The notes: generated from the sequence alone by a model not told the origin. A DNA stretch of 32,000 bases from an uncultured bacterium (GCA_964640155.1 CAZXEQ010000001.1:30001-62000); one strand, 5' to 3'; shown: positions 1 to 22,598, counted from the stretch's first letter. A program made the numbers and translations.

Positions 1-1
1 C

Positions 2-6000: not shown

Positions 6001-9000
6001 CTCTTAAATCAAATTCAATGGGACGAAGACTCCCCGCAACGGATGACAAGCGACGATTTCTTGCAACATCAGCCTCTAAAACCCTTAAACGCGCTGAACC
6101 ATCATAACCTGTCGATAATTCAAGTAAGTCTCCTGATGGAATTTGTAATGCATTAATCATCTCATCGGTGACTTGACCCATCCCCATCAAATGAAGAATT
6201 TCTATTTTGATTTGACGCAATTGCGTCTCTGCTCGGGTCTTTTCAGCTTCTGCTCGTCTTAAAGCCTGCTCTTGCCCTTGTATGACCAGACTTCCATATA
6301 AATTCGTATGGGCATTCATATACTGAACAAAGGGTCGTCTAAAATTGATTTCTTGATCTAACTTTGCTATATCTTCCTGTAAATCTTGATACCTTAAAAA
6401 TTTATCCGATAAAGATTCAATCACATGGCTGCGCTCTTGATCAATTTGAGCTCGAATATGCGACTCTAAAACTTCAGCGGCATCAATTTCTTCTTGAGTA
6501 GCACCTAACCAAGGAAGCATCCCTGTAATAGCAACACCCGCACCTAAATTAGAAAAAATGCCTTGTTCAGAAAAAGTCCGATCAGGAGAGAAAAAATCAT
6601 GTCCAGAATCTGCAGCATGAAAAGTGTAGTAAACTTGAGCTCTCGCAAAAATACTCAACTGTGGCCTACGGCTAGCACTAGCTAAAGCTCGTCTAGCTTG
6701 TGCCAAACGAAGTTCTGCGTTTAATCTTTGAATATTTGGATTATTTTGAACCGCTCGAGCTAAAATATCATTGCGCTGAATACCAGATAAGGCTTCTGGC
6801 GTCAACCGTTGCGTTTGTTGAACTGTTTGAATTTCCGCTTCCATCCATTGCGCCCTAGCTTGAGTGTATCCCTGTAAAGCTTCTACTTGCCTTCTTCTCA
6901 CTTCCAAACGTTCTCGCATCGTTCCCAATCGAGCTGCCACATCGTCAGGAATAACTTCTGAGGTAGGAAGCTGCGGAATAGTTGCTAACATATTTAAAAC
7001 CGTCATACGATTTCGCCAATCCAATTCAAATTCCTCGCGATGAAATTGATTGGTTCTACGATCATTGTCTCTTGCTACCCTTAACAAACGACGCTGTTGT
7101 TCAACAACTTCTCTTGCTGCACCTGTATATCCTAAATTTGATAAAACATATCCAACTGATAAATCTGCTCCAAGCGTACCTGTCCATGCTCCTCCTACAT
7201 CAAATCGAGGATCAAAATTAATTCTCCTCATCCCTTCAACAATCACACTTGCATCAAACGTAAAACGATTACTTCGATCCATCACAGATCTTTGGGCTTG
7301 AAGAGCTCTGTCTCGAGCCGTATAAAGAAGTTCGGGATCAAGTCTGTGACTTCGAATTAAAGTTTCCTCCATAACCCCATTTACTTCGTTAATTACAGCC
7401 GTTGTAAAATCTGCTCCCTGCAAGCCTTGTATTCTTGTAACAAATTCAGGAGAAAAACCTCTCACATGAAGATTGCCTCGACGAGAAAAACCCATTTGCC
7501 GCGCTAATTCTGTCTGAGCACGATGTAAAACAGACTCAGCTTCTCTTAAAAAAACACCGGCCTGTCCTCGAGCCGCTTCAACATTACTAAACTCTGCATC
7601 AGATAAAGTTTGCCCCGTATGAAGAGCCTGAGCAGCATTGTATAAACCATTTACATCTCTTTGATATTCTCTAACCATCTCAACTTTTAATTGAGCCATT
7701 AACAAACTGACATAAGCTTGTACCGTATCCATCACCACTTGATGTCTATCTCTTTGAGCCATCTGACGAGCAACATCCCAATTCCTTAACGCAAAATGTG
7801 TAGCAGCGGCACGAACTGGATCAAACCGATAACCAAATCTTAAAACTGCCGAAACTTGCAACCAATTTAAAGGTTGTGCAAAAGATCCATCATCATCGGC
7901 ATGACCATAGAAAGTAAAATTTCGATAGTCTCCTCTTAGAATAAGATGAAGTCCTATTCCATTTGCCCCCTCTTGAAAATCATACATGGCTCTGGCAACA
8001 TCCGCTTCAGTTCTTGGAAGATGATCATGATGATTTAAAGCTTGTTCAATAGTCTGACGTAAATCCATTTCTGCAGGTGGAACGGGTTCTGGAAGAGCTC
8101 CTGTTTCAGTGGTAGGAGAAGTAGCTGCCTCGCGTGCCAGCATTTGTCCTCGATTTTCAGTCATCTTAGCTCTCAGAGTTCTTCTTCGTTCTGTGGCTTG
8201 ACCAAGATTTTGTCTCAAAGCTTGGATTGCTTCTGAACTCCCTGGTTCGAGAACAACAGAAGGCACGCCTGGTTTTTGCTCCACTGAAGAAGTTGTCGTA
8301 GTTTGAACGACCAAAGCACCATTTTGATTTGATGTTGTTGAAGTCTGTATGTCTGTGCCAACAGCCCTAGGAGTCAAAGCGGCAATTTGTTGATCCAATT
8401 GATGTTCGGCCTCCTCTAGAACTTGTACTACAGGAACAGAAGAAATAGGAGTCTCTGAAAAAAGAGTTGAAGAAGAATTATCAGGAAGAACTGTCACAAC
8501 AGGCCCTGGCGATGCCAATGGAGAATGAGAATCACCCAAAATCCCTGAACTTTCTGCTGCATGATAAGCAACCCCTCCTGCCATCACTGCAACACTGGCA
8601 TAACCTAAACCCTCCACACCTTTTAAAACTACACGCGTTGGAATAGAAAGTGCTAGAGGATTCCATGCTAGCTCTAACAATGCTCGATCTTCTTCACCCA
8701 ACTTCCCTTTATAATCCAAAAGATCTTCCGCTGTAATCTCTTCTTTTCTCTCAATCTTTTCTATCATTTCCCCTAAAACATCTCTCAAAGGACAAGCATG
8801 ATCTCTTAGAGCTTGATAAAGAACCCAAAGTCCTCCATGGGGATTCCGATCAAAATGCTGACGATGGGTCATCTCAGTCTTTAAAGTGTCCATATCGACA
8901 GGGCGAGATTGATGATATTGACCTAAAAGGGCATCAAAAACTTCTTGAGACATATCTGATCTAATTTGAAATGCTTTTGCCTGTCCTTTTACATCTACTT

Positions 9001-12000
9001 TTAAAATTGCAAAAGGTTTACCTTCATGATAAATCAATTGTACTTCTTCTCTTGCACTCACTACTTTCTCGTCTTCCAATCTTTCAGAAGACTCCACAGC
9101 TTCACCAATTAAATATTCCACCGGATCCAATTCTCTGAAATAAACAAGCCGTCCATGTACAAACTCACAAAAAAGACCCAATTCTGGATAAAATTTTGGA
9201 CCTGTAAAATCTTTTTTTGAAGCCTGAGGAAGATCAAAAACCTTTGCTGTTGTCTGATCATAAAATCTAACAGGATTACCCTTTTGATATTCCACACGGA
9301 CATTGACTTTTCGACGGGCACTGAGTAATTTCCCTTCTAAAAATTGAGCAACATAAGTCTCACTTTCCCATCGACCCGTAAAATTTTCATCGACAGGCTG
9401 AGGAATTGCTAAAGGGGCTGCTCCTTTCCCAAAAGGATCTACAAAATCATAAGCATACACAAAACCAGGTCGTTCTTTACTTTTTAGCTCTTGAACTTTT
9501 TCTGAAGTCATTACTCCTTTTTTTACCAATCGATCTAACGCTTCTGATGTGAAAAGTTCAAAATCATCTGCTGAAAAACCTGTAAAGTTGGCTGACAATT
9601 CAAAAGATTCAGGTCCAGGAATAGAATAGGCCGCTGAAGCATGGTCTCTTGCACTTAAAGAAACGCGTGAAAAACCAATTTCTTTTTTCCCCTCTCGATG
9701 GACAAATCGAACATCCTCTTTTCCTACCACATCATGAAGATCTAACCAATGACCTAATTGTTCTGGACGCAAACCTAAAGGTTTTAAACTGGAAACTCGA
9801 GCTAATTCTTCTTCAATGGCAGATGTTGCTTTTAATAATGCCTCTTTTAAATTATCCTCAAAATTTTCATCATCTAAACTTCCATAAGCCAAATTAATGA
9901 CAATTTTCTGCCCATCCCAAACAACCATTTCAGGTTTCTTTGCAAAATAGGCAGCAACTCCTTCTATTACTTTCCAAACAAGTCCTAAGGCAAATCCTAG
10001 CGTAATCGAAATAAAAGTTTTTGAAATAAACTTCCCAATCAAACTCAAAATAGAAAACGTCCAGCGGGCTGTAATTCCTTCAAGTTCCCTTATTCCCCAA
10101 ACCAAAGAAATCTCTTTCCTGAAACCCTGCCAAATAGAAGGACGAGTTTGATTGCTCTCCACTTTCAATTCAGGTTTATGAATCACAGCGACTCTCACTC
10201 TAGCGGCTTCTTGCATTTGGGCTAAAAATGGATATTGCGTCAAAAGTGTTTGACGCCACTGAACTAAACTCTGATGACCCGCTAACACCTCAGACCCTTC
10301 CATTAAAGTTTCCACACGTTCTAAATCTCCATCTGAAAACTTGCCTTCACCTTTTTGGGTAGGATCTACAAAAAGAATAACGGGAGGATATTCAACAGTC
10401 ACTTCCGGTCCTGCACGATGGGGATGAATCATTTCATCCAGCCAGGATTTTCTTTCGCTTTGAAAATTTCCGAACTTCTTAAAGAATAAGGCAAAGAAAA
10501 CAGCTACATCTTGTCCACGACCTGCCAAATCTGCCAAAACTTCCTGGGCAACACGCTTTTTCTCACCTATATTTGTAGAATGCGTCAAACAAGCAGCTAA
10601 ACGCTTCAACTGAAACTCATTCATCTCCACAAAACTTGCTTCTGGACTTAATTCTTCTGCTTTTTCAATCACTCCTACTTTTAAAATAATTCCCATCGGT
10701 TGGCCATATACAACCACAGGAATATAATAATCATCTCCTAATCTTTGAATTTTCTCTGAATCCACTTCCACGGCTGAAAGAGCATCAGAAAGTCTTTCTC
10801 TTATTGACGCAGCCTCTTCATCACTCAGAAGTCCTTCCCGGACGCGATTGAGCAAAAACCCATTTAAATGAGCTGTATGTTCTTTCGTATTACCCCGCTC
10901 CATTTCTCCAGCCTGCCCCTTTTTCCCTTCAGTAACCAATTTCGTTACTTGAGCACTCGCCAAAATTCTCATTAAACTCAAAGCTACACGGACGGAAACT
11001 TGCTGGGCTTCTGCTTTTGTTCCAGCCACTCTTCTAATCTCTGGATCTGCAATCTCTGCCAAAAAACTTGCTAATGCTGAGGGCAACATATTCAGCATCA
11101 AAGGGCCTAACTGATCGGAATTTCCACGATAAGCCACCAGTGGTATTTGCTTCGAACTCGTATCTGTTGAATCGGAAGGTTGAGAGAGAAGTTTCGATAA
11201 AGAAACTTTACCTTTTACTTCATTCTTCTTACTTAAAACTTTCATCTCTTGTTCCATCGAAGAAAGTTCATCATCCATAATGGAAAGATAAGGAGTTTTA
11301 AGCTTCAATTTGGTTACTTTTGGAGTAATAATCACATAAGAAATACCCTTTTCTTCTAACTGCTTTGCAATCCCCTCTGAATGAAATCCTCCTGCCACAA
11401 GCACAGCAACAGGACTCTTAGCTTCTTTCATGGACTCCAACATATTTTGAACCATCACCTTGTCACGCTCTTTAGCAAAATCATAAAATTGTTTTAAAGG
11501 TTGAATATTTTCATCTAAAAAATTGATATCTGGAACATCGAAAGTCCGATCTACACTTAAAGAAATTTCTTTCAATCGAACTAATAAGTTGGAGGGTTTT
11601 AATTTTTCTTCATTTTCGTAGTAGTAAGACAAACCTGAACGCAAAAGCTCTAAATGATAAAAATCGCGAAGAAGCTTTAATGATTTGCCAATCTCAAACA
11701 AATCTTTTTGTTTTGGATCTTTTAAATAGGCTGCCTGTAAATCTTTTAAAATTTGATCACATTCGCCAAATAAAGCCTCGCTATCAATTTCATTAAAAAT
11801 TTTCACCATTTCAATATAAGAAGAAAGATTAGGATAACTTTCTAAAGAAACTTGAGCCTTTAAAACAGCTTTTTCTAAAGAGCTATAAAATTCATATGCC
11901 TTTATTTTCTCCAAACGATAATAAAGCCCTTGGGTTAAAAGATCTGCGAACTCCTCTTTAGCAACCTTCTTAGAAAGAACATTCATTAAATCCTGTCGTT

Positions 12001-12853
12001 CTTGTTCTACTTTATTGATTTTGATTTTCTTCTCAAGCTCTTTGACATCCATCATCTTCTTGATATTCATGCTTCCAGAAATATTTGAAAGCCCGAGAGT
12101 CTTTACCTGAGCCAGAAGAAACTCAACATAAGCAGCAAATCCTATTTTATCCTGATTGTAGTCTTTCTCTTTTTTGAGAAGATTTTTAACTTCCGATGGA
12201 TAAATTTTATCTTCAAGAACTTTCACTTCATTTTCTAATTGAGTTAAAAGCCCATCTGCTTTTTCCTGAACGGACATAGATTTTTGGAAAGCAAGAAAGT
12301 TATTAAAATAAAGAGGAAGATTTTCAATACCTTTCATCAAAAGGGGCTTATCTTGAACAATCGAGAGATATTCAGCTCCCGTAATTTTCCCCTGTTGAAG
12401 CAAAAGTCGTGCAACTTGTTTACGAATTTCAACTTGAGGGAAAGCTGTGAATAGAGAAGTATCTACCAAACCAGAAGCAGCTTCTAAACCAATCAGTTTT
12501 AAACCATGATCAGAATGTTTTTTGAAAAATTCATTGAGAATTTTTGCAGAATTGGATTGAGCTTCGAAATTACAGTGAAGATCTTGAATGTGAATAATCA
12601 GGGGTTGATTTTGACCTTGAAACTTGGATTTTATAAACCCCAGACTGGGACTTACATGAAATTCGGATACGGTAGGAGAGCTGGATGATGATTTAGACTT
12701 TTGAACAGGTGATTCATTAATTTCCAAGCCTCTTGCAAAGGCAAAATCACTACACAAGAAGCTAAAAGCAACAAGAACTGAAGTAATTCGGATTCTTATC
12801 GAAAAACCGTTCTTTTTTGTAAAAAAATTCCGGGATTGATATTTCCTAACCAT
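2..12853 (-). CDS. Giant multidomain envelope protein; N-terminus complete, C-terminus beyond the window edge (at least 4,284 codons visible)
   Basis: I hand-translated the minus-strand frame (codon low coordinate = 2 mod 3) across all 214 sequence lines. The ATG is at 12853-12851, with GGGGAG 6 nt upstream and an in-frame upstream stop at 12884-12886. No stop codon occurs down to nt 2. The protein starts MVRKYQSRNFFTKKNGFSIRIRITSVLVAFSFLCSDFAFARGLE. A complete-ORF track would omit it because it has no stop in the window, and no other frame in 1-12853 holds a long ORF. Confidence 0.9.
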   Translation of the reverse strand, partial: MVRKYQSRNFFTKKNGFSIRIRITSVLVAFSFLCSDFAFARGLEINESPVQKSKSSSSSPTVSEFHVSPSLGFIKSKFQGQNQPLIIHIQDLHCNFEAQSNSAKILNEFFKKHSDHGLKLIGLEAASGLVDTSLFTAFPQVEIRKQVARLLLQQGKITGAEYLSIVQDKPLLMKGIENLPLYFNNFLAFQKSMSVQEKADGLLTQLENEVKVLEDKIYPSEVKNLLKKEKDYNQDKIGFAAYVEFLLAQVKTLGLSNISGSMNIKKMMDVKELEKKIKINKVEQERQDLMNVLSKKVAKEEFADLLTQGLYYRLEKIKAYEFYSSLEKAVLKAQVSLESYPNLSSYIEMVKIFNEIDSEALFGECDQILKDLQAAYLKDPKQKDLFEIGKSLKLLRDFYHLELLRSGLSYYYENEEKLKPSNLLVRLKEISLSVDRTFDVPDINFLDENIQPLKQFYDFAKERDKVMVQNMLESMKEAKSPVAVLVAGGFHSEGIAKQLEEKGISYVIITPKVTKLKLKTPYLSIMDDELSSMEQEMKVLSKKNEVKGKVSLSKLLSQPSDSTDTSSKQIPLVAYRGNSDQLGPLMLNMLPSALASFLAEIADPEIRRVAGTKAEAQQVSVRVALSLMRILASAQVTKLVTEGKKGQAGEMERGNTKEHTAHLNGFLLNRVREGLLSDEEAASIRERLSDALSAVEVDSEKIQRLGDDYYIPVVVYGQPMGIILKVGVIEKAEELSPEASFVEMNEFQLKRLAACLTHSTNIGEKKRVAQEVLADLAGRGQDVAVFFALFFKKFGNFQSERKSWLDEMIHPHRAGPEVTVEYPPVILFVDPTQKGEGKFSDGDLERVETLMEGSEVLAGHQSLVQWRQTLLTQYPFLAQMQEAARVRVAVIHKPELKVESNQTRPSIWQGFRKEISLVWGIRELEGITARWTFSILSLIGKFISKTFISITLGFALGLVWKVIEGVAAYFAKKPEMVVWDGQKIVINLAYGSLDDENFEDNLKEALLKATSAIEEELARVSSLKPLGLRPEQLGHWLDLHDVVGKEDVRFVHREGKKEIGFSRVSLSARDHASAAYSIPGPESFELSANFTGFSADDFELFTSEALDRLVKKGVMTSEKVQELKSKERPGFVYAYDFVDPFGKGAAPLAIPQPVDENFTGRWESETYVAQFLEGKLLSARRKVNVRVEYQKGNPVRFYDQTTAKVFDLPQASKKDFTGPKFYPELGLFCEFVHGRLVYFRELDPVEYLIGEAVESSERLEDEKVVSAREEVQLIYHEGKPFAILKVDVKGQAKAFQIRSDMSQEVFDALLGQYHQSRPVDMDTLKTEMTHRQHFDRNPHGGLWVLYQALRDHACPLRDVLGEMIEKIERKEEITAEDLLDYKGKLGEEDRALLELAWNPLALSIPTRVVLKGVEGLGYASVAVMAGGVAYHAAESSGILGDSHSPLASPGPVVTVLPDNSSSTLFSETPISSVPVVQVLEEAEHQLDQQIAALTPRAVGTDIQTSTTSNQNGALVVQTTTTSSVEQKPGVPSVVLEPGSSEAIQALRQNLGQATERRRTLRAKMTENRGQMLAREAATSPTTETGALPEPVPPAEMDLRQTIEQALNHHDHLPRTEADVARAMYDFQEGANGIGLHLILRGDYRNFTFYGHADDDGSFAQPLNWLQVSAVLRFGYRFDPVRAAATHFALRNWDVARQMAQRDRHQVVMDTVQAYVSLLMAQLKVEMVREYQRDVNGLYNAAQALHTGQTLSDAEFSNVEAARGQAGVFLREAESVLHRAQTELARQMGFSRRGNLHVRGFSPEFVTRIQGLQGADFTTAVINEVNGVMEETLIRSHRLDPELLYTARDRALQAQRSVMDRSNRFTFDASVIVEGMRRINFDPRFDVGGAWTGTLGADLSVGYVLSNLGYTGAAREVVEQQRRLLRVARDNDRRTNQFHREEFELDWRNRMTVLNMLATIPQLPTSEVIPDDVAARLGTMRERLEVRRRQVEALQGYTQARAQWMEAEIQTVQQTQRLTPEALSGIQRNDILARAVQNNPNIQRLNAELRLAQARRALASASRRPQLSIFARAQVYYTFHAADSGHDFFSPDRTFSEQGIFSNLGAGVAITGMLPWLGATQEEIDAAEVLESHIRAQIDQERSHVIESLSDKFLRYQDLQEDIAKLDQEINFRRPFVQYMNAHTNLYGSLVIQGQEQALRRAEAEKTRAETQLRQIKIEILHLMGMGQVTDEMINALQIPSGDLLELSTGYDGSARLRVLEADVARNRRLSSVAGSLRPIEFDLRGRGFVDRPDRVLASNPENPLSLQPPSPTPSPIPGWEVMLTLTGRFGGSSRDAVQRRAEQAMEDAQTERAVYLRQKEQDLSAAHRNYEQSLNQIREIQADLVRIRQALQLHLRMTGQEFDPNVVANMDPNVHEGTVLEDRVQEVEALQRLDRAVRSFRSAVRILMHYGEERSHYSRDWQEALRVNVQRPTPTRSPQILSFERVLAMALDPEGPNALPSIQRAHHRVEEARQGVIDAVTNQVREPLTMRTSAGLISTNIGSISPAPAQDYLRAGFNQAVTGEATLNLQWSNFRSIGAAQHRLDEAQASFQRERVRATLELMQAYHDLLLARRVEEIRRSDQATVQEFISTVQRRYTEQAAVSGSTTLRDSNDAQRLEATQRLLLAEHPVAMAEERLRVLLGRDVDFPPTAQLNDQVPAWLRDQVGFDSWVDARLRSLFSNPNAANSPLNRAVLPEVHHVEGAEFDVTTPIFHHLGSLNLRGSGLELLSGAVGAGAEWTFALYEGGRISSERRIARIRLAGAESELRERRREMGLELEAKIQDFQDSVLRVIEAQRYFEAQKTAWRQFRESYTAEETTSTVGAGQWIMTYTRYQEALSVFLSALSDFSQKREVLKAYLLPLGISLERLVEHAEERSGNVATSTSERSLDEIRQEQVLLQGELAKLDESIRSLRTDLRRQRREAARQRATTSQQAAHGPEITPAPSQETLVRLMRARTRLNSLLESLRGRHFSEDELVDIRRQIIQIFEETQFSPEDIAAFQTRWNLMLSSQTALPRAESNTLPSIAPLTTERVSLGALLSDSSTETSGTRVQGGFPVSLSPLPSGGWGVRMSTTTSPTLWDRISDVLIPTAYAQPRPDSGTAVRPRVTGASIGLQPDERELGNSLLSTWESMRRKVDPETGLIYDTAAIRGNGLVPTNPIHRITNIGFYLVSIAVLRDLGVLDLDLARDLTLRTLQTLSTLPRHRGFFYAAYFPKNSRLPQQRLQPAESWISSIDNGNLRGSLIALRGAYLRDQSLQGRAILQIIDRIIFGETREGRVIQPPQDLSVFLDRQYHDPQDPNSQYLALVLTPALDDLSQPFPPQRAFRFLGAPASSPINHINLNLFGGEFGSEATLTTLLGVAMGEMPMERLTDLRVRVYNPRPGLVAPMSFFGASFQIGIPPLLTNVDENASAYRSLLQGEAQLRVDRGSRLDPSSFEGLGLNTQGLWADLRDNGHYIDNDGRVLDSVRTLDSADDLQLGAAYTSKKNDIFLILHQVSLRQGMMAAHSASLVNNRGDYAGELGLRELRMVRNWDPSYETVFTPHAAFLALPFVASYTDVTTSLQTLRVRYPGHEAQEATADHGATQAQLPAYHTNLGWVDAVNLERSEVVGRTVALNDAMGLLALAQALGANPGDYVDHTLSDPAFRAQVQTHLPNRRNPIHTMAELGQALDPVLRAQVRRDQHVEIPAPRPNPHLHLRSGQTTLERGRQILEALSQSRLQLPQAVVVPEEDYERVDLTARSGTGWDGHAFPFWNVEQHNELARQDAERRRSDRALSVERWRSREAARERAIEDEWHEREARREDDSRIRERRLAELERDYARRQAATRTEVRSLLSLLRDFSLRPHVRHMRGSPSLVSGGAVSGVLNSLGAAVGDGRVMNLNDWTLVFDRYARSRNMSASDMQTYFSNIHRVIPLLRSGALSGSPLPDFLANSFEALIPMETLDLFSNRDIGAGVNLKFLGLASYYALFLMQHPMADAALREHIEHDSLLFRGISNVAHRRSVTEGFPQGAMLSPVLQPAEAANVDPTIRDLRRLAYHDRLFRQRVFNAEFQKVSDGERSQGRNAMRGPLAGFYSQVTGASRQFNENYASQGYLTVWDTYVRSRPQGVSIETLGEVVSAIHSRVNRFYHGQIRVRDTARLAYWRALGNIAQANAVMQLSRESVSMARDVAWANFALNYLKDANDTPEDLARKLSAWLDKLERFRSAVEVLYGHLDLDSSRDIGALSSWVRLAESVDARPEQFR
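1840..3340 (-). other. Glucoamylase-like (PF10091/DUF3131/GH144-type) (alpha/alpha)6 glycoside-hydrolase-like domain of the giant protein (aa about 3,170-3,670)
   Basis: Motifs TNPIHRITNIGFYLVSIAVLRDLGVLDLDLARDLTLRTLQTLSTLPRHRGFFYAAY...WISSIDNGNLRGSLIALRGAY and YHTNLGWVDAVNLERSEVVGRTVALNDAMGLLALAQAL. They resemble the GFFYhW...S.iD...L and GyGf.DafN...iDqGp.l motifs of that family. Recalled from memory, not searched. Confidence 0.45.
4142..8068 (-). other. Six OEP (TolC-type) repeats forming three TolC-protomer-sized units inside the giant protein (aa about 1,596-2,904)
   Basis: Three consecutive units of about 425-435 aa (about nt 8068-6800, 6799-5500 and 5499-4142). Each opens with a TolC-like N-terminal motif: MDLRQTIEQALNHHDHLP; LSGIQRNDILARAVQNNPNIQRLNAELRLAQARRAL; ILSFERVLAMALDPEGPNALPSIQRAHHRVEEARQ. 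Each also contains OEP signatures such as ATLNLQWSNFRSIGAAQHRLDEAQASFQRERVRATLELMQAYHDLLLARRVEEIRRS and AEWTFALYEGGRISSERRIARIRLAGAESELRERRRE. Confidence 0.75.
9941..10063 (-). other. Internal hydrophobic transmembrane segment(s) of the giant protein (aa about 931-971)
   Basis: Translation WTFSILSLIGKFISKTFISITLGFALGLVWKVIEGVAAYFA, flanked by charged residues. Confidence 0.5.
11300..12680 (-). other. N-terminal module of the giant protein, paralogous to the neighbouring 1,063-aa protein; ChaN/TraB/GumN/Tiki-like His motifs
   Basis: Giant PLIIHIQDLHCNFEAQSNSAKILNEF...LKLIGLEAASG aligns with neighbour TVLLVQDAHCNFEAQRNTSEILNSL...IPLIGLEGAQG. Giant FYDFAKERDKVMVQNMLESMKEAKSPVAVLVAGGFHSEGIAKQLEEKGISYVIITPKV aligns with neighbour FYEFALQRDEAMLNASLQGMEEKKVSLMMLVTGGFHTQGIAQALKEKDISFFIITPKV. 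The spacing between the two His motifs is about 390-400 aa in both proteins. The superfamily assignment is an inference from this motif pattern. Confidence 0.6.
12731..12853 (-). other. Predicted Sec signal peptide of the giant protein (aa 1-41)
   Basis: Basic n-region (RKYQSRNFFTKKNGFSIRIR), hydrophobic core ITSVLVAFSFLC and an AFA-R cleavage-like site. Assigned by eye only. Confidence 0.55.
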
Positions 12854-17661: not shown

Positions 17662-18471
17662 TCAGGATTCTTGTATTGCTTGTCCAATAGCTTTAATTCT
17701 TGCTTCATCGAAATTTACAGGACCATTCCAAGATGCATGATAGGCACTCCAATTCGCTCTGTATTTTAAATAAAGTTTTGCTTGTTTATGAAGGGTTTCT
17801 GGAGATGCTTCAATCAGAGGAGAACAATCATTCGTTGAAATTTTATTTGAATCTTTCCAAACATTCTTATCATTTGCTTCTTCACACAAATGTTTCTCCT
17901 GATATTGAGCTTTGCTTTTCAAATTTTGACCCCACCAACTATCACCAATACAAATCACCTTTGCCCCAGGCCATATTTCATACCCGTACTTCATCCATTC
18001 TTCACATTTGCGTCTATCTCCTCCTCTACTTCCTGGCTCTGTCACAGGCTGAAAAATAATCAACTGAGTGCCCACTTTATCTTTAAGCTCATCTACAAGT
18101 TTCTTAAAATCAGAAGTAGATCGAGCCCTTACTTTTTTCGTATTCCAATTCACGACAATGATCTCAACAGTAATCCCTTTATCCCTGAATGGCTTTACCC
18201 AATTTGCTATAAAATCTGTATCTTTCTTAAAATCAATTTCAATAATCGTGTAATTTAATCCATGATTTGCTAAAGCATTTGCAAAAGCATTTGGATCTTG
18301 GCTTGCCCAATCCCACGGAGTAGCATAACCTATAAAATGCCCTATAGGTTTTTTAGGAAGAATCGTTACAGTAGAAATATGAGACGATCTCTTTTCAGCA
18401 TGACAACTCATCGATAAAAGGCAAAGAGAAGCTAAAGAAATAATAATCAGAAAAATTTTGAAACGTTTCAT
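17662..18471 (-). CDS. Secreted hypothetical protein (269 aa); possible TIM-barrel glycosidase-like fold (weak)
   Basis: ORF track entry. Signal peptide MKRFKIFLIIISLASLCLLSMSCHA. The FQPVTEPGS segment is reminiscent of the GH5-type NEP motif, and that is the only functional hint. Confidence 0.65.
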   Translation of the reverse strand: MKRFKIFLIIISLASLCLLSMSCHAEKRSSHISTVTILPKKPIGHFIGYATPWDWASQDPNAFANALANHGLNYTIIEIDFKKDTDFIANWVKPFRDKGITVEIIVVNWNTKKVRARSTSDFKKLVDELKDKVGTQLIIFQPVTEPGSRGGDRRKCEEWMKYGYEIWPGAKVICIGDSWWGQNLKSKAQYQEKHLCEEANDKNVWKDSNKISTNDCSPLIEASPETLHKQAKLYLKYRANWSAYHASWNGPVNFDEARIKAIGQAIQES

Positions 18472-18480
18472 ATGACTCTT

Positions 18481-18619
18481 GCGTGCCGGCCCCGATATTT
18501 TTCGGGGGGCCGACTTACATCGGCCTTGAGCCAGTCACTCCTCCTAGTAGTCGAATATCAGCCACTGGCTGATATGCATTCTTAATCAAATCTTCTGACC
18601 AATGGCCTTTAAGAAGTCA
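18481..18619 (-). ncRNA. tRNA-trailing structured element E1 (between the tRNA-Glu 3' end and the 269-aa gene start); same family as E2 and E3
   Basis: Shares the family core with E2 and E3. Conserved hairpin atatcagcc 18555-18563 / ggctgatat 18567-18575, flanked by tagtcg and gcat. Hairpin ccccga 18490-18495 / tcgggg 18502-18507. Left end gcgtgcc. GC-rich island within AT-rich spacer. The strand is assumed from the tRNA orientation. Confidence 0.5.
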
Positions 18620-18692
18620 CGGCCCCAACGGGATTCGAACCCGTGTCTCAGCCTTGAGAGGGCTACGTCCTAGGCCTCTAGACGATGGGGCC
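18620..18692 (-). tRNA. tRNA-Glu (anticodon CUC)
   Basis: The reverse complement folds as a cloverleaf: GGCCCCA TC GTCT AGAGGCCTA GGAC G TAGCC CTCTCAA GGCTG AGAC ACGGG TTCGAAT CCCGT TGGGGCC G. 73 nt; no encoded CCA. Confidence 0.9.
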
Positions 18693-18724
18693 AAAAAAAT
18701 CATTTTGAAAATTAAAATTTTTGG

Positions 18725-18972
18725 CTGCCGGACTAGGATTCGGCGCCTGCGCGATTCGGTTATTCACCTTTGGTAAAACCCTCGGTTGATTTTCAACCTC
18801 GGACACCTCACGCTTCGGTCGGCCACTCGGTTCTCCTAATAGTCGCAAATCATGCCCCGCATGATTTGCATCATTTCTTAGTCGAACCTCTCTTCGAATC
18901 CTAGTTTACTACTAAACTATTCCTGATGAAATTTATAGGCTTTGATACTTTTACATCTCTTACTGCGAAACT
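18725..18972 (-). mobile_element. tRNA-trailing element E2, bounded by an 18-nt duplication of the tRNA-Gln T-loop-to-3'-end; candidate miniature integrative element or structured RNA
   Basis: Direct repeat ctgccggactaggattcg at 18725-18742 and 18973-18990, the second copy lying inside tRNA-Gln. Identity breaks inside the T-loop and is followed by gcgcc. Internal inverted copy cgaatcctagt 18895-18905 pairs with 18732-18742. Conserved hairpin caaatcatg 18846-18854 / catgatttg 18860-18868. Hairpin ggttga/tcaacc 18784-18798. Confidence 0.6.
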
Positions 18973-19043
18973 CTGCCGGACTAGGATTCGAACCTAGATA
19001 CACAGATCCAGAGTCTGCGGTCCTACCATTAGACGATCCGGCA
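18973..19043 (-). tRNA. tRNA-Gln (anticodon CUG)
   Basis: The reverse complement is TGCCGGA TC GTCT AATGGTA GGAC C GCAGA CTCTGGA TCTGT GTAT CTAGG TTCGAAT CCTAG TCCGGCA G. U1-A72 and G73 are typical of bacterial tRNA-Gln. 71 nt; no encoded CCA. Confidence 0.88.
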
Positions 19044-19100
19044 AAAAAGTAGTGGATAGTGTATAGGGAATAGTGCGGAGTGAAAAGAAAAAATTCTCTC

Positions 19101-19137
19101 AAAAAAAAGCCCCCTGAAGAGCTGAGCTCTTCAGGGG
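19101..19137 (-). terminator. Rho-independent terminator of the porin gene
   Basis: Perfect 12-bp stem (cccctgaagagc 19111-19122 / gctcttcagggg 19126-19137) with a 3-nt loop. On the minus strand it is followed by GC and eight T. It lies 24 nt after the stop codon. Confidence 0.9.
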
Positions 19138-19160
19138 ACTAAAACTTCAACCTTCAACCA

Positions 19161-20540
19161 TTAGAAGCTAACTAAAATCTCGCCTCTAATTTCGAAAGCT
19201 GTATCATCTGGGGTGTAAGCTGCTCCAGGCAAGAACCAAGCCAAATAGAGCTGTGTGCTTACATCTTCAGTGTAATCATACTCAGCAACGACGTCAAATT
19301 CGTTACCAAGATCATTATCACCGCCATTGGTCAATGTTGGGATACCGCCATTGTCCTGGAAAGCATCTCCCATAGACATGACTGCATCTTCAACTTGCCA
19401 ATAGTGATAGTAATCTAATGCCAAAGTAAGATTTTCCATAGGAAGAACGCTCAATTTAGCATTGATGAAATGAATATTCTCCAGTCGAGGACTGAAAGCA
19501 TATCCGTAGTAGTTGTATTCAAAGAGTTCCTGGAACCCTTCGTAATCAGCAGTACCACCTGTACCTGGGCTATCTTCTCCAGAAGCATAAGTATATGCAA
19601 CTGAAAGAGAAGGATGCCATGCAAAATCAAAGGTATAAGAAGCACCCAAATTAGCTGCCCACGCTTCTAAATCACGTGTGGAGCTATATTGATTGAACTG
19701 ATAATCCCCTTCGGCCCATAATTGCAAAGCCTCAATAGGATTAACATCGCCTCTTAAACCAAACGTCACAGGTTGATAGTGTGTTTCACCATCAGCAATA
19801 CCCATGATATAAGCTTCAGCATTCCAACGATCAGCAGCATAATGACCATTAACAATATACAAGCTGGCATCATCTGCATTGGTCGCTGTAATAGCTTGAG
19901 AGCTTCTTTCGGCAAGACGTGCATAGACTGCATCCACAATAATTGGATAATAGTCTAATGTCGCACGAATCGCGTCGAAGTTAATCTCATGTTCGTTATC
20001 GCTGACAAGGAAACCCTTGCCGAAGTTAAGATATTGACGACCCACTTTTGCAGTCAATGGCTGATAATAAAGCTCACTGGCTTGAATGTAGGCCTGACTT
20101 ACCCTAACTTCATAACCATCTTTTTGTCTTCTGGCCTGACTGGTGGTGTTTTCATCAAGATGAAAACTACCATCGATGTCAGTGGTGCCATCAGCATTAC
20201 GGATGGTTGCACTGCTGCTAGGTAAACCAAGAGCTGCTGCTGCACTTGCAGATGTTTCATCGCTGTGAACAGCTTTGTCACCTGCAATACCAGAAGCTTC
20301 AAGCTCAATAGCTACCAGGACGTTATCTGTAAGATCGGCTTCAACATTGATTCTTGCACGTTGGGCAAAATAGCCGATATCATCATCTGCTGGTCCCGCA
20401 TCATCAATGAGATCAATGACGTTTGAGCTGAAAATACCACGATTTCTCAACTCGCCAGAGACCTTCACGTTCTGAACTTCAGCGGATACTACACCAGAGA
20501 TGAGGACAAGCATTGCGATACTCGAAAGTATCTTTCTCAT
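19161..20540 (-). CDS. Outer-membrane beta-barrel porin, alginate-export (AlgE)-like family
   Basis: 459 aa. Signal peptide MRKILSSIAMLVLISGVVSA. Motif KVGRQYLNFGKGFLVSDNEHEINFDAIRATLDY resembles the AlgE-family GRQ..fG.g.l...w.n..r.FDg motif. Alternating beta-strand pattern and a C-terminal ...ILVSF with terminal Phe. AGGAG Shine-Dalgarno 10 nt upstream of the start. Confidence 0.75.
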   Translation of the reverse strand: MRKILSSIAMLVLISGVVSAEVQNVKVSGELRNRGIFSSNVIDLIDDAGPADDDIGYFAQRARINVEADLTDNVLVAIELEASGIAGDKAVHSDETSASAAAALGLPSSSATIRNADGTTDIDGSFHLDENTTSQARRQKDGYEVRVSQAYIQASELYYQPLTAKVGRQYLNFGKGFLVSDNEHEINFDAIRATLDYYPIIVDAVYARLAERSSQAITATNADDASLYIVNGHYAADRWNAEAYIMGIADGETHYQPVTFGLRGDVNPIEALQLWAEGDYQFNQYSSTRDLEAWAANLGASYTFDFAWHPSLSVAYTYASGEDSPGTGGTADYEGFQELFEYNYYGYAFSPRLENIHFINAKLSVLPMENLTLALDYYHYWQVEDAVMSMGDAFQDNGGIPTLTNGGDNDLGNEFDVVAEYDYTEDVSTQLYLAWFLPGAAYTPDDTAFEIRGEILVSF

Positions 20541-20945
20541 CTATTTATATCTCCTTGTTTGTTTTCTTTATTGGATTTATCTGACCATCACCTGAGTAAC
20601 TTAAGGCTTAAAAAATGAAATCATCCCCCCTTTCTTGCCTGATTAAAGCTACCTATGATGTTAGGTTGCGACTTTGAATTAAAATGAATAGAAAAATAAA
20701 AACTACTCCCCTGTACAAAGAAAACCCCTTAGAAGCATTAAAAACACTAGCTAAAGAATCCCTAATACATTGAAGTAGAATCAACTGTAGAGTACTACAA
20801 AAACCCCCTTAAAGATTGAAACAAGAATAGATTAACAAAAATTAAATTAAACTGTCAATAAAATTGAAACGAAAATATAGGAACTTTTCAAAAATCGCAT
20901 TTGTAAATTCTTGTTTGACTGAAGCTAGAGTTCTCTCATATTCGT

Positions 20946-21584
20946 TCATTTTTGAACAATATTATCATGACTTCCGACAATCGCTTCTAATGGCGCCTTC
21001 CACGAAGTATCTGCCTTTTCAGTCTTTAACTTCATGAAGTACTCCAATCCTGCTTGAATATTACCTTTTGAGAAAAGGCATCGTCCTAAATTAATCTGAA
21101 CAACTGTGCTTAAAAAAGAAGATTTTTCGTCTTTTGCCAAACGATTAAAAACTGCTTCTGCCTCAGCTATTTTTCCTTCCCAAAGAAGACATTCTCCAAT
21201 TCTATTTTCAAGGAGAGAAGAAAAAGCCCCACGAGTGGAGCTTTTTAAAATTTTCTCATACATTTCTCGTGCTTGCAAAAAATGTCCTTGTTTCCACTCC
21301 TCTTCAGCAAGATTAATGAATGCAATTTGTGAAGCAACAGTCCCTGAATAATTTTTTACAAATTTTTCATATTCCTGATTTTCTTTTAAAAGAGAAAGAG
21401 CTTGAAAAGCTTTTTCTTCATGTTGGTTTTGATAGGTAAACCAACCCCAATATCCTAATGCAATAACCACTGTCATTAACAAAAATCCGATAATTATTTT
21501 TTTAAATTTTTGAAACGTTTGAATTAACCGAGAAAGTTTTGTATTCGGTTTTTGTAAAAGAGTTGCTACAGATTTATTTTTCAT
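20946..21584 (-). CDS. Membrane-anchored TPR-like protein, YfgM-like (ancillary SecYEG-associated family)
   Basis: 212 aa. Single N-terminal TM helix IIIGFLLMTVVIALGYWGWFTY, followed by TPR-like helices (FLQAREMYEKILKSS..., AEAEAVFNRLAKDE..., NIQAGLEYFMKL). The architecture matches YfgM. Confidence 0.55.
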   Translation of the reverse strand: MKNKSVATLLQKPNTKLSRLIQTFQKFKKIIIGFLLMTVVIALGYWGWFTYQNQHEEKAFQALSLLKENQEYEKFVKNYSGTVASQIAFINLAEEEWKQGHFLQAREMYEKILKSSTRGAFSSLLENRIGECLLWEGKIAEAEAVFNRLAKDEKSSFLSTVVQINLGRCLFSKGNIQAGLEYFMKLKTEKADTSWKAPLEAIVGSHDNIVQK

Positions 21585-21629
21585 GATGGTAAAGTCCCTA
21601 TCAGGTTTACATAAATACTAAAGAGCTAC

Positions 21630-21657
21630 ATCATACTCACTAAAATTTAAAAATCAA
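21630..21657 (-). promoter_or_regulatory. Candidate sigma-70 promoter for the YfgM-like gene (TTGATT-16 nt-TATGAT)
   Basis: On the minus strand, TTGATT is at 21657-21652, followed by a 16-nt spacer and TATGAT at 21635-21630. The site is about 45 nt upstream of the ATG at 21584. Confidence 0.35.
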
Positions 21658-21693
21658 AATATTTAAAAATCCTAAAACGCTGATTTCTATATT

Positions 21694-21938
21694 AAATTTT
21701 GCCCCCGAGACGAGTCGGCGCCTTTGGGTCTCGGGCTACCCCGATATGTACATCGGGGACCTTCGGACGCCTCGCCCTCCGGTCGGCCAGCCGCCCTTCA
21801 CAGCAGTCGCCAATCATCCTGTGGATGATTGGCATTATAGAGTTTCAGGGCTCCTATTCGACTCGTCAAAAAGACAGATTTGACACGAGTCCAAAGATAT
21901 ATTACCTATACGCACTGCACGTGATAAACAAAAAATTT
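21694..21938 (-). mobile_element. tRNA-trailing element E3, bounded by a 24-nt duplication of the tRNA-Arg T-loop-to-3'-end plus trailer; candidate miniature integrative element or structured RNA
   Basis: Direct repeat aaattttgcccccgagacgagtcg at 21694-21717 and 21933-21956, the second copy overlapping the tRNA-Arg 3' end. Identity breaks in the T-loop and is followed by gcgcc, as in E2. Internal inverted copy cgactcgtc 21859-21867 pairs with 21709-21717. Conserved hairpin ccaatcatcc 21810-21819 / ggatgattgg 21823-21832. Hairpin ccccgat/atcgggg 21739-21758. Confidence 0.6.
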
Positions 21939-22012
21939 TGCCCCCGAGACGAGTCGAACGTCCGACCTAGGCTTTAGGAAAGCCTCGCTCTATCCTACTG
22001 AGCTACGGGGGC
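21939..22012 (-). tRNA. tRNA-Arg (anticodon CCU)
   Basis: The reverse complement is GCCCCCG TA GCTC AGTAGGATA GAGC G AGGCT TTCCTAA AGCCT AGGTC GGACG TTCGACT CGTCT CGGGGGC A. 74 nt; no encoded CCA. Confidence 0.9.
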
Positions 22013-22052
22013 GTTAAAACGATTGCTTTTCCTAAGCCCTATCAAACTGCCG

Positions 22053-22598
22053 CTAATACTGAATTAATGAAAAAACAGGATGTCCTTCAAGTTTTTTCCT
22101 GCCTTCAAGGAATAAAAGTTCAATAAGAAAAGCGATTTCAACAATTTCACAACCAAGATTCTTAACCAATTCAATCACCGCAGAAATAGTGCCTCCAGTC
22201 GCCAAAACATCATCCACTAAAAGAACTCTATCCCCTTTTTTTAAATCTTCTTTATGAATTTCAAGGCAATCTAAACCATATTCGAGTTGATAAGTAGCTT
22301 TACATGTAGCACGAGGTAATTTACCTTTTTTTCGTACAGGAATCACTCCAACACCCAATTGCGCTGCCAATGGGGCTCCCAGTAAAAAACCTCTAGATTC
22401 AATACATACAATCGCATCAAAGGAAGAATCTTTAAGGTGGTTTGCAAAAAAATCGATTGTCTTTTTAAAAAGAGGACCATTCTTTAAAAGAGGCGTAATA
22501 TCTTTAAACAAAATTCCTTTTTTAGGAAAATCTGGAACATCGCGAATTGCTTCTTTTAATGCTACCTCGAGTGCTTTGCTCCCTTCCATCGTGATCAC
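22053..22598 (-). CDS. apt: Adenine phosphoribosyltransferase
   Basis: 181 aa. Apt-typical DFPKKGILFKDITPLL and the PRPP-binding motif VLLVDDVLATGGT. Its start overlaps the sigma gene stop by 4 nt (ATGA). Confidence 0.92.
   Translation of the reverse strand: MITMEGSKALEVALKEAIRDVPDFPKKGILFKDITPLLKNGPLFKKTIDFFANHLKDSSFDAIVCIESRGFLLGAPLAAQLGVGVIPVRKKGKLPRATCKATYQLEYGLDCLEIHKEDLKKGDRVLLVDDVLATGGTISAVIELVKNLGCEIVEIAFLIELLFLEGRKKLEGHPVFSLIQY

Follow-up and report, generated by a model that had tools for sequence, protein, structure and literature searches.

Why does a 9-11 bp hairpin recur three times, each time with a different stem, within a few kilobases of a genome from an uncultured bacterium? 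We examined a window of 32,000 nucleotides (GCA_964640155.1 CAZXEQ010000001.1:30001-62000) in which an earlier note, working from the sequence alone, had described three elements (E1, E2 and E3) sharing a hairpin with compensatory changes, and had proposed a structured RNA core. The observation is confirmed by our analysis. The interpretation is supported only in part, as the three elements prove to be copies of a previously undescribed, small non-coding element found at the end of tRNA genes.

Three hairpins on the tRNA-sense strand

The hairpins are found at 18555-18575 (E1), 18846-18868 (E2, with a full stem at 18845-18869) and 21810-21832 (E3, with a full stem at 21809-21833). The frame that they share, ATGCNNATCANNCNNNGNNTGATNNNCGACT read on the minus strand, hits exactly these three places in the 32 kb, even with up to three mismatches allowed, and none of 100 shuffles gave a match; chance predicts none. 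The earlier note read the plus strand, while the structured strand is the minus, tRNA-sense strand. The conserved GGCCGA block that it described is real, and is part of GUGGCCGACCGGAG on the minus strand. Its second hairpin (ccccga/tcgggg and equivalents) exists in E1-E3, but lies in a length-variable region and is absent from the shorter copies at L137, L011 and L002 (L numbers denote loci of relatives), so it is not part of the conserved core. The second covarying helix is instead a long-range helix, P2, that encloses the hairpin. The span given in the note, 18481-21938, also contains two unrelated protein genes, a porin at 19161-20540 and a TPR protein at 20946-21584.

Insertion at tRNA genes

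The context of the elements, which the note had missed, is provided by tRNA annotation. All three lie on the minus strand, each immediately 3' of a tRNA gene (Glu, Gln and Arg), and all three tRNAs in the window carry a copy. E2 and E3 are insertions of 248 and 239 bp, bounded by perfect direct repeats of 18 and 24 nt, respectively, of the tRNA 3' part. The repeat starts exactly at T-loop position 56. These repeats mark E2 and E3 as insertions that rebuild the tRNA. In addition, each element holds an inverted copy of its own tRNA's T-arm, which can pair with the displaced tRNA fragment. In order, the parts are an unconserved AT-rich spacer, the segment antisense to the T-arm, a conserved core with two covarying helices, P2 and P3, the block GUGGCCGACCGGAG, a variable hairpin region, and AGGCGC abutting the displaced tRNA fragment. 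The core is therefore part of a tRNA-targeting element and not a free-standing RNA gene of the tmRNA, SRP or RNase P type.

The target of E2 is tRNA-Gln(CUG) at 18972-19044 (-), found by ARAGORN and by the Rfam tRNA model (58.4 bits), whose last 18 nt (18973-18990) are the regenerated 3' end. The E2 unit (18743-18990, minus strand) runs from T-loop C56 of this regenerated end, through the spacer and the structured core, to the conserved AGGCGC, and scores 97.9 bits with our covariance model; the second repeat copy is at 18725-18742. The spacer occupies 18906-18972. Across copies, spacers are 53-73 nt long and 60-75% AT, with 22-58% pairwise identity. The anti-T-arm segment (ACTAGGATTCGAA, 18893-18905) is the 5' strand of helix P1, and is complementary to 13 nt of its own tRNA, against 3-9 nt for tRNAs of other kinds. 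In the core (18829-18888), P2 (18884-18888 with 18829-18833) encloses hairpin P3 (18845-18869) and the conserved junction GACUAUUAGGA. The block GUGGCCGACCGAAG at 18813-18826, which contains the GGCCGAC of the note and is conserved in six of six full copies, is the candidate 5' strand of a further helix, P4, pairing with GGCGCC. This pairing appears in the minimum-free-energy folds of the E2, L012 and L011 copies, and it rests on folding alone, as the pairs do not vary. The remainder (18743-18812) comprises the variable hairpin region (18748-18812), which measures 17-65 nt across copies, and AGGCGC (18743-18748), which precedes the distal repeat copy in all seven distinct full copies. The displaced original 3' fragment of tRNA-Gln (18722-18742) consists of C56-G73 (18725-18742) plus an encoded CCA (18722-18724) and forms the 3' strand of P1. 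Its downstream flank resembles the empty-site tRNA-Gln end, CCA and spacer seen in the relative L138.

E3 follows the same plan downstream of tRNA-Arg(CCU) at 21939-22012 (-). The unit (21718-21956, minus strand; 96.5 bits) contains the regenerated tRNA end (21933-21956), the spacer, the anti-T-arm segment (21857-21867), P2 (21847-21851 with 21793-21797), P3 (21809-21833), CUGGCCGACCGGAG (21777-21790), the variable region (21724-21776) and AGGCGC (21718-21723). The displaced tRNA-Arg fragment (21694-21717; C56-A73 plus 6 nt of flank) is the 3' strand of P1. An orthologous copy lies at the same tRNA in L012. E1 (18482-18618, minus strand), next to tRNA-Glu(CUC) at 18619-18693 (-), is a degenerate copy that scores only 33.1 bits (E = 1e-6). 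It keeps P2 (18596-18600 with 18533-18537), P3 (18555-18575) and a GGCCGA hairpin (18508-18525), but has lost the spacer, the anti-T-arm segment and most of the direct repeat, of which only GGGGCCG remains (18487-18493). A canonical element sits at the same tRNA-Glu in L137.

Occupied and empty sites among relatives

The same architecture occurs at five other tRNAs in two more Chlamydiota assemblies and in a Candidatus Auribacterota genome. Copies sit at seven kinds of tRNA in two phyla. The regenerated tRNA with its displaced fragment is seen in L012, L137, L011 and L002 as well. The direct repeats are 18, 18, 18, 18, 21, 24 and about 26 nt, with a fixed left end and a right end varying from N73 to N73 plus 8 nt, and the junction is always AGGCGC followed by C56. 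Only ten copies are known, from four or five genomes, and with the seven from relatives included the hairpin shows clear compensatory change. Scans of metagenomes added none, as the first found nothing and every hit examined in a second was a false positive.

The elements are polymorphic insertions. Near-identical Auribacterota strains differ by exactly one of them: L002 has a 196 bp element at tRNA-Thr(GGU), while L151, with a RmuC protein 97% identical to that of L002, has an empty site with the same downstream flank, AAGTTATGA. In the Chlamydiota relatives without elements (L013, L016, L138, L140 and L141), the Gln, Glu and Arg tRNAs that each locus contains are present and unoccupied, and L139 likewise has unoccupied Gln and Glu. 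L137 has elements at Gln and Glu but not at Arg. The polymorphism could come from deletion between the 18 nt repeats, or from homologous exchange between strains, rather than from active transposition. At the orthologous site, E3 and the L012 copy share only 38% identity in the spacer. They nevertheless keep 18 of 18 nt of the displaced fragment, and their core stays alignable (77% mean column identity across six copies), although P2 has been entirely rewritten.

Covariation and strand

To further evaluate the predicted helices, we aligned nine copies with a covariance model. In this alignment, which is fitted to the model, 98.5% of cells pair, against 30-41% when partners are slid by 1-3 columns. 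Nine of 16 pairs show changes on both sides, and no shuffle (0 of 500) reached the observed covariation score. RNAalifold predicts the same two helices on a plain MAFFT alignment. P1 is specific to its target: each anti-T-arm segment matches its own tRNA over 9-13 nt, against 3-10 nt for other tRNA genes, the off-diagonal 10 nt being the Gln tRNA of another genome. P1-P3 contain 190 Watson-Crick pairs, 5 G.U pairs and no A.C pairs on the tRNA-sense strand, and on the other strand those five pairs would be C.A mismatches. Folding energies, however, do not separate the two strands. An RNA product is inferred only from these five cells and from the genomic context, including co-orientation with the tRNAs.

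Database searches and comparison with known systems

A search of Rfam 15 (tmRNA, SRP, RNase P, 6S, self-cleaving ribozymes, group I/II introns, HEARO and others) returned only the three tRNAs at the gathering threshold. With the E-value relaxed to 10 over 18400-22100, the best hit inside an element was twister-sister at 18.8 bits (threshold 34, E = 1.6), in E1 only. ARAGORN found no tmRNA. Searches of phage, plasmid and viral collections gave no match. The inserts (188-250 bp) have no conserved reading frame, and neighboring genes are housekeeping genes. None of the seven neighboring proteins scanned against Pfam, and no gene called in the syntenic loci, is a recombinase; none was found in the 4-32 kb around each copy.

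Comparison with genomic islands and prophages integrated at the T-loop by tyrosine integrases (Islander database, PMC4383910; mycobacteriophage Ms6, PMC1762012) shows that in both the tRNA gene is split in the T-loop, the element supplies a replacement 3' end, the displaced fragment marks the far end as a direct repeat of 18-26 nt, and precise empty sites occur among relatives. The present elements, however, are 188-250 bp rather than kilobases, carry no integrase and no gene of any kind, and sit at seven kinds of tRNA with one core family. Their covarying folded core and their segment antisense to the target T-arm are both missing from a standard phage-type attachment site. With MITEs and cis-mobilizable elements (CIMEs) they share small size, lack of coding sequence, multiple copies, an inferred dependence on a helper encoded elsewhere, and a tendency of assemblies to break at them. 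They have no terminal inverted repeats, as the left end is an unconserved spacer, the right end is AGGCGC, and the only inverted repeat is between the internal anti-T-arm segment and the tRNA-derived flank. Nor is there a short target-site duplication of fixed length (2-15 bp), since the 18-26 nt "duplication" rebuilds a gene; target choice is strict (tRNA T-loop), and the conserved secondary structure has compensatory changes.

Mobile introns and R2-type elements (group II intron EBS/IBS pairing; R2 5' ribozyme P1 with 28S sequence, PMC3414825) likewise pair an internal segment with host sequence at the insertion junction, ride on transcription of a highly expressed RNA gene (inferred here), and change their pairing with the target. 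Rfam finds no group I or group II intron and no HDV-like ribozyme signature in our elements, the core is only about 110-165 nt, no reverse transcriptase is encoded, and the long flanking direct repeat is not created by intron insertion. In folded single-strand recombination sites (integron attC, CTX phage attP) the structure is also conserved through compensatory change, and a stem rebuilds a duplex that resembles the double-stranded target. Here the sequence is conserved as well as the structure, the predicted fold is a three-way junction and not a simple hairpin, the target is a tRNA gene, and no associated integrase is known.

Alternative explanations

The rival that survives best, although we consider it unlikely, is an attachment-site-only mini-island: the attP of a family of integrated islands whose integrase acts at the tRNA T-loop, stripped of all genes and excised and integrated by a tyrosine integrase encoded elsewhere, in which the core would be a set of protein-binding arm sites or a folded single-strand attachment site like attC or the CTX phage attP, with no RNA involved. 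A regenerated tRNA plus a displaced fragment is the defining signature of islands in tRNA genes (PMC4383910); it is exactly what an ordinary tyrosine integrase produces, without need of RNA. The T-loop is a known crossover site, and the 26 nt core of the Ms6 attachment site can be retargeted to other tRNA-Ala T-loops by changing the core (PMC1762012). A classical phage attachment site is similar in size to these elements. The fixed left and variable right boundaries are those expected for identity blocks. Protein-binding arm sites, however, do not covary as helices, yet P1, P2 and P3 do. The spacer side is unconserved, so one arm would carry no binding sites. One core family at seven kinds of tRNA, the lack of an integrase gene in any locus examined, and the lack of relatives in phage, plasmid or viral collections also argue against it. 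The G.U-only exceptions to pairing favor RNA, although G.T pairs are tolerated in folded single-stranded DNA.

Two further readings are less likely still, and about equally so. In the first, a SINE-like retroelement, the RNA made with the tRNA would be copied back into DNA at tRNA genes by a reverse transcriptase encoded elsewhere, primed at a nick in the T-loop, with the 18-26 nt repeat as a target-site duplication. The one fixed and one variable repeat boundary, the sense orientation of the structured strand, and the resemblance of a co-transcribed structured RNA pairing with target sequence to R2 elements and their non-autonomous derivatives (PMC3414825) would fit. Against this, no reverse transcriptase was seen in any locus examined, there is no 3' tail or poly-A-like feature, and no truncated 5' ends were seen. 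In the second, the core would be a host-serving small RNA or processing signal (a decoy or chaperone for the T-arm, or a regulator of tRNA 3' processing) spread only by homologous recombination and gene duplication. In its favor, the core and the displaced fragment are under long-term purifying selection at the orthologous E3 and L012 site, E1 keeps P2 and P3 despite the loss of its terminal features, and every tRNA in the window carries a copy. But near-identical strains differ by one whole element in front of tuf, so the element is dispensable; many close relatives lack it at the same tRNAs; one core subtype appears at different tRNAs in different genomes (the L137 Gln core is closest to the L012 Arg core); and the family occurs in two phyla. 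Finally, recurrent terminators or palindromic operators are contradicted by the data: although the E2 hairpin read on the plus strand is listed as terminator-like, the shared frame has no chance matches, the other copies lack U-tracts, the long-range helices P1 and P2 covary, and operator half-sites would be conserved in sequence rather than covary.

A model for the element family

The explanation that we favor, with moderate confidence, is a new family of 188-250 bp non-coding, non-autonomous mobile elements that target the 3' part of tRNA genes and whose structured product is the tRNA-sense strand, most likely an RNA made with the tRNA. Our analysis establishes that an element occupies the T-loop at position 55/56 and carries at its 5' side a replacement copy of positions 56-73, so that the tRNA gene stays intact; that the original 18 nt fragment is displaced to the far end, directly after AGGCGC; that an unconstrained spacer of about 55-70 nt and a conserved core lie between the two copies; that the core is supported on the tRNA-sense strand by two covarying helices, P1 and P2 stacked on P3; and that occupied and empty sites both exist. 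P4 (GGCCGACC with GGCGCC), closing a variable arm to give a three-way junction, is suggested by folding only. The L002b copy lies between tRNA-Thr and tuf and so must let transcription through. What follows is inference, including the mechanism of transposition. No helper protein has been identified, and transcription of the structured strand is deduced from sequence alone.

In this view, the element, which has no terminator and can sit inside a tRNA-tuf operon, would be transcribed together with the tRNA and released by tRNA 3'-end processing as a stable structured RNA. A protein encoded elsewhere in the genome, a recombinase or a reverse transcriptase, would recognize this fold, or the same fold in single-stranded DNA. 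The anti-T-arm segment would act like the exon-binding sequence of an intron, reading the nearly universal T-arm of a target tRNA gene and placing the conserved AGGCGC end next to position 56, which would give the fixed left junction. Because T-arms are so similar, retargeting between tRNAs would need only a few base changes.

The hairpins and their genomic context

The three hairpins described in the earlier note are present where it placed them, and its observation is confirmed. Read on the minus strand, they share the frame ATGC-NN-ATCA-NN-C-NNN-G-NN-TGAT-NNN-CGACT. This pattern hits exactly these three places in the 32 kb window, even with three mismatches allowed, and none of 100 shuffles gave a match. 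The note's interpretation of a structured RNA core is supported only in part, as the covarying fold is borne out by the analyses below, while its existence as an RNA is inferred, and the note, made from the sequence alone, could not see the genomic context.

All genes in this part of the window are on the minus strand. ARAGORN and Rfam find three tRNA genes there, tRNA-Glu(CUC) at 18619-18693, tRNA-Gln(CUG) at 18972-19044 and tRNA-Arg(CCU) at 21939-22012, and the three elements E1, E2 and E3 each begin directly after the 3' end of one of these tRNAs. A repeat search shows that E2 and E3 are bounded by perfect direct repeats of the tRNA 3' part. For E2 these lie at 18725-18742 and 18973-18990 (18 nt), and for E3 at 21694-21717 and 21933-21956 (24 nt). 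Both repeats start at the same tRNA position, C56 in the T-loop, and in both the far copy is preceded by AGGCGC. Each element also holds an inverted copy of its tRNA's T-loop plus the 3' strand of the T-stem, at 18893-18905 in E2 and at 21857-21867 in E3 (the anti-T-arm segment).

Two smaller features accompany these repeats. Just inside the far junction, at 18737-18759, E2 repeats the junction motif (CCGAATC-GCGCAGGCG-CCGAATCC; repeat family D2), which could be the footprint of an earlier junction. The E3 spacer holds at 21882-21892 a third, imperfect T-arm-like copy (minus strand GGACTCGTGTC), which can form a hairpin with the anti-T-arm segment as an alternative to P1, the helix between that segment and the displaced tRNA fragment. 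Elsewhere in the window, one very large open reading frame on the minus strand (1-12850) begins near 12850 and runs off the start of the window, making it longer than about 4,200 codons. Its N-terminal region reads like a signal or anchor segment, and no other ORF of 120 aa or more lies in the first 13 kb. A look-up of the protein at the window's right end found no record.

Copies in other genomes

The porin gene next to tRNA-Gln places the window in a Chlamydiota ("Chlamydiae bacterium") metagenome-assembled genome. A scan of one genome per species for the hairpin frame gave 11 hits. Two of these are real, both from one Candidatus Auribacterota genome, in locus L011 after tRNA-Ser(GCU) and in locus L002 after tRNA-Thr(GGU). 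A covariance model built from six copies found a further copy in L002 after tRNA-Thr(UGU), and recovered E1 only weakly, at 33 bits. Syntenic Chlamydiota contigs added three more copies, one at tRNA-Arg in contig L012, one at tRNA-Gln in contig L137, and one at tRNA-Glu in L137 that is cut by the contig end. Only ten copies are known, from four or five genomes.

All full copies have the same order of parts on the tRNA-sense strand. The tRNA is followed by a spacer of 53-73 nt, which is 60-75% AT and not alignable between copies, then by the anti-T-arm segment ending in GAA, a purine junction (RGAG), the 5' strand of helix P2, the hairpin P3, GCGACUnnUAGG, the P2 3' strand, GnGUGGCCGACCGGAG, a variable region of 17-65 nt, AGGCGC, and finally the copy of tRNA positions 56-73 plus 0-8 nt of flank. 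Insert sizes are 188-250 bp. Each element also carries two or three purine tracts that look like Shine-Dalgarno sequences (GGGAGG, UAGGAGG, CCGGAG) in its junction strands, for example at 18834-18840 and 18888-18892 in the window, but no conserved start codon or reading frame follows them. Several metagenome contigs end inside or within about 200 nt of an element or its tRNA (L137 5736; L012 11659; L002 3977; and, in two further contigs, L151 1 and L152 1805), which is what a multi-copy repeat that breaks assemblies would produce.

Occupied and empty sites

Comparison with relatives shows that the elements are insertions. The Chlamydiota loci L013, L016, L138, L140 and L141 carry the Gln, Glu and Arg tRNAs that each locus contains, with no element. 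L139, another Chlamydiota locus, shows the same for Gln and Glu, and a truncated, element-free tRNA-Arg lies at its contig start. In L138 the Gln and Glu genes are only 22 nt apart. L137 has elements at Gln and Glu but not at Arg. The cleanest case is that of L151, which comes from a strain whose RmuC protein is 97% identical to that of L002. In L151, tRNA-Thr(GGU) is followed directly by AAGTTATGAGG and then tuf, while in L002 the same tRNA is followed by a 196 bp element, and the far copy of CGATTCCCGTTCTCGGCT is followed by the same AAGTTATGA flank. The far copy is therefore the original tRNA end, and the spacer belongs to the insert. The element is dispensable and, to judge from its position, must let transcription through to tuf.

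The window gives further support, as the flank after the far copy of E2 (CCA plus an AT-rich run up to tRNA-Glu) resembles the empty-site arrangement in L138. The displaced tRNA-Gln fragment in the window encodes CCA (18722-18724), but the regenerated gene end does not (18970-18972). In L137 both copies encode CCA (5325-5327 and about 5498-5500), and the empty-site relatives vary, with CCA present in L138 and absent in L016.

The relatives differ at these positions in other ways. In relatives without the element, the tRNA genes are flanked by G-rich palindromic repeats (TAGGGTTTAGGG...CCCTAAACCCTA, or TTCAAAGTTTAAGG in L013), at 8705-8830 and 11450-11560 in L016, 11540-11640 in L012 and 12270-12420 in L013. 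This is a different, REP-like repeat family occupying the same intergenic positions. In one relative a 232 aa ORF with a weak LAGLIDADG homing-endonuclease match (L013 11487-12185; also loci L014 and L015, 1734-2432) sits between the porin gene and tRNA-Gln, whereas in the window the porin gene is followed directly by tRNA-Gln. tRNA-Arg(CCU) lies in the same orientation as its neighbours in the window (21939-22012), L012 (8541-8614) and L141 (7863-7939), and is inverted in L013 (8805-8878), L016 (8824-8898), L137 (2594-2668) and L138 (90-166). The two genomes that carry the element at this tRNA both have the co-oriented form. The low-coverage contig L138 has, within 90-280, a second, partial tRNA-Arg-like copy next to a different tRNA. 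Between them lies a 12 nt string, GCAAATCATGCG, identical to the 5' strand of hairpin P3, which could be a remnant, a chimeric assembly or chance.

Secondary structure and strand

On an alignment of nine copies, 98.5% of cells in P2 and P3 pair, and 9 of 16 pairs show changes on both sides. No shuffle (0 of 500) reached the observed covariation score, and sliding the partners by 1-3 columns drops pairing to 30-41%. This alignment is fitted to the covariance model, which favours the structure, but RNAalifold on a plain MAFFT alignment gives the same two helices. P2 is rewritten between copies, with the observed strand pairs GGUUC/GAACC, GCCCU/AGGGC, GUCCCGAC/GUCGGGAC, GCUCCGAC/GUCGGAGC and GGCCU/GGGCC. 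P1 is target-specific. Each anti-T-arm segment is complementary to 9-13 nt of its own tRNA from T54 onward, while against tRNAs of other kinds the match is only 3-9 nt.

Minimum-free-energy folds of the window's E2 copy and of the L012 and L011 copies also pair GGCCGACC with GGCGCC. This gives a predicted helix, P4, coaxial with P1, and makes a three-way junction whose branch point faces the 55/56 junction. As these bases do not vary, P4 rests on folding alone, without support from covariation. Across P1-P3 there are 190 Watson-Crick pairs, 5 G.U pairs and no A.C pairs on the tRNA-sense strand. The minus strand is therefore the structured one, although folding energies alone do not separate the strands.

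Selection on the core and the displaced fragment

E3 and the L012 copy sit at the same tRNA-Arg locus in genomes whose porins are 83% identical. Their spacers are 38% identical in an optimised alignment, while the displaced fragment is 18 of 18 identical to the tRNA in both, and the core remains alignable even though P2 has been completely replaced. Both the core and the whole displaced fragment are therefore maintained. The L137 tRNA-Gln copy shares its P2 and junction sequence with the L012 tRNA-Arg copy rather than with the window's tRNA-Gln copy, which points to movement between tRNA kinds. Most T-arms read TTCGAATCC, so switching targets needs only one to three changes in the anti-T-arm segment.

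Rejected identities and searches for further copies

We considered whether the elements belong to a known family. Rfam scans at the gathering threshold and by E-value gave no hit. The earlier note could not match the core to tmRNA, SRP RNA, RNase P RNA, 6S RNA or hammerhead signatures. On the plus strand the sequence reads AATAGTCGCAAA, which resembles the resume-codon region of E. coli tmRNA. However, ARAGORN finds no tmRNA, the motif is simply the foot of hairpin P3 read on the wrong strand, and the tRNA-like ends are explained by the direct repeats. The junction strands (AARRGAG and GRSU), compared by eye, do not match the hammerhead core CUGANGA and GAA. A small peptide is likewise ruled out, as a reading frame across the hairpin (MQIMxCMICD) has no start codon in L137 and does not end at the same place in every copy, and changes in the stem are compensatory rather than synonymous. 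No reading frame is conserved. Insertion at a fixed distance downstream of the tRNA, in the style of Tn7 or CAST, was rejected because the spacer is absent from the empty site and is thus part of the insert. The element is not a terminator, and a promoter scan gave nothing consistent. No recombinase lies nearby, the neighbouring genes encoding RmuC, a NUDIX hydrolase, a TadA-like deaminase and methyltransferases.

Searches of viral, phage, plasmid and metagenome sequences for more copies, or for a gene-carrying parent element, added none. Three patterns run against viral contigs gave 0, 0 and 9 hits, and all 9 were false by the covariance model. BLAST against phage and plasmid sequences gave nothing. 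A first metagenome pattern gave nothing, and a second returned at least 120 hits, of which all those examined were GC-rich coding sequences. This second scan was swamped by such false positives, and true copies may have been crowded out.

Discussion

Our analyses establish a new family of gene-free, tRNA-targeting insertions with a covarying folded core, one helix of which is built from element sequence paired with the displaced tRNA fragment. Three further points are inferred from sequence and context only: that the fold is an RNA made with the tRNA, that a helper enzyme encoded elsewhere uses it, and that the anti-T-arm segment acts as a guide.

The closest known kind is an island integrated at the tRNA T-loop by a tyrosine integrase (PMC4383910). 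For the Ms6 integrase, changing the attachment-site core retargets integration to other tRNA T-loops (PMC1762012). The elements share with that kind the logic of a regenerated tRNA and a displaced fragment, but they lack an integrase gene and add a structured core that no standard attachment site has. Pairing of an internal segment with flanking target sequence recalls mobile introns and the R2 5' ribozyme (PMC3414825), but none of their sequence signatures is present. The alternatives to our interpretation are, in turn, an attachment-site-only mini-island, a SINE-like retroelement and a host-serving trailer RNA, with chance the last of them.

A further possibility, which is not excluded but which we consider doubtful, is that the element is a new class of guide-bearing mobile RNA. 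In this view, the three-way-junction RNA, made from the tRNA transcript, would use its anti-T-arm segment to base-pair with the T-arm of a target tRNA gene, a pairing that would be seen in the product as helix P1. The pairing would put the conserved AGGCGC 3' end of the RNA against position 55/56, where a partner enzyme, or the RNA itself, would join it, and repair synthesis would then create the duplicated 18-26 nt. This would be a programmable, tRNA-directed insertion system with no counterpart among known introns, bridge-RNA or omega-RNA systems, or integrases.

The family identifies a repeat that breaks assemblies of Chlamydiota and Auribacterota genomes at tRNA loci, and it flags abundant structured RNAs, as yet inferred, that derive from tRNA trailers and that annotation pipelines currently miss. 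tRNA genes are the classic landing sites for large islands that carry their own integrase, and here the same landing logic is used by a gene-free 200 bp element whose only conserved content is a folded nucleic acid that pairs with the target. This points either to a minimal parasite of tRNA-specific integrases or to a guide-based insertion system. Either answer would explain how an element with no genes can target many different tRNAs, and could also provide a compact, retargetable insertion module.
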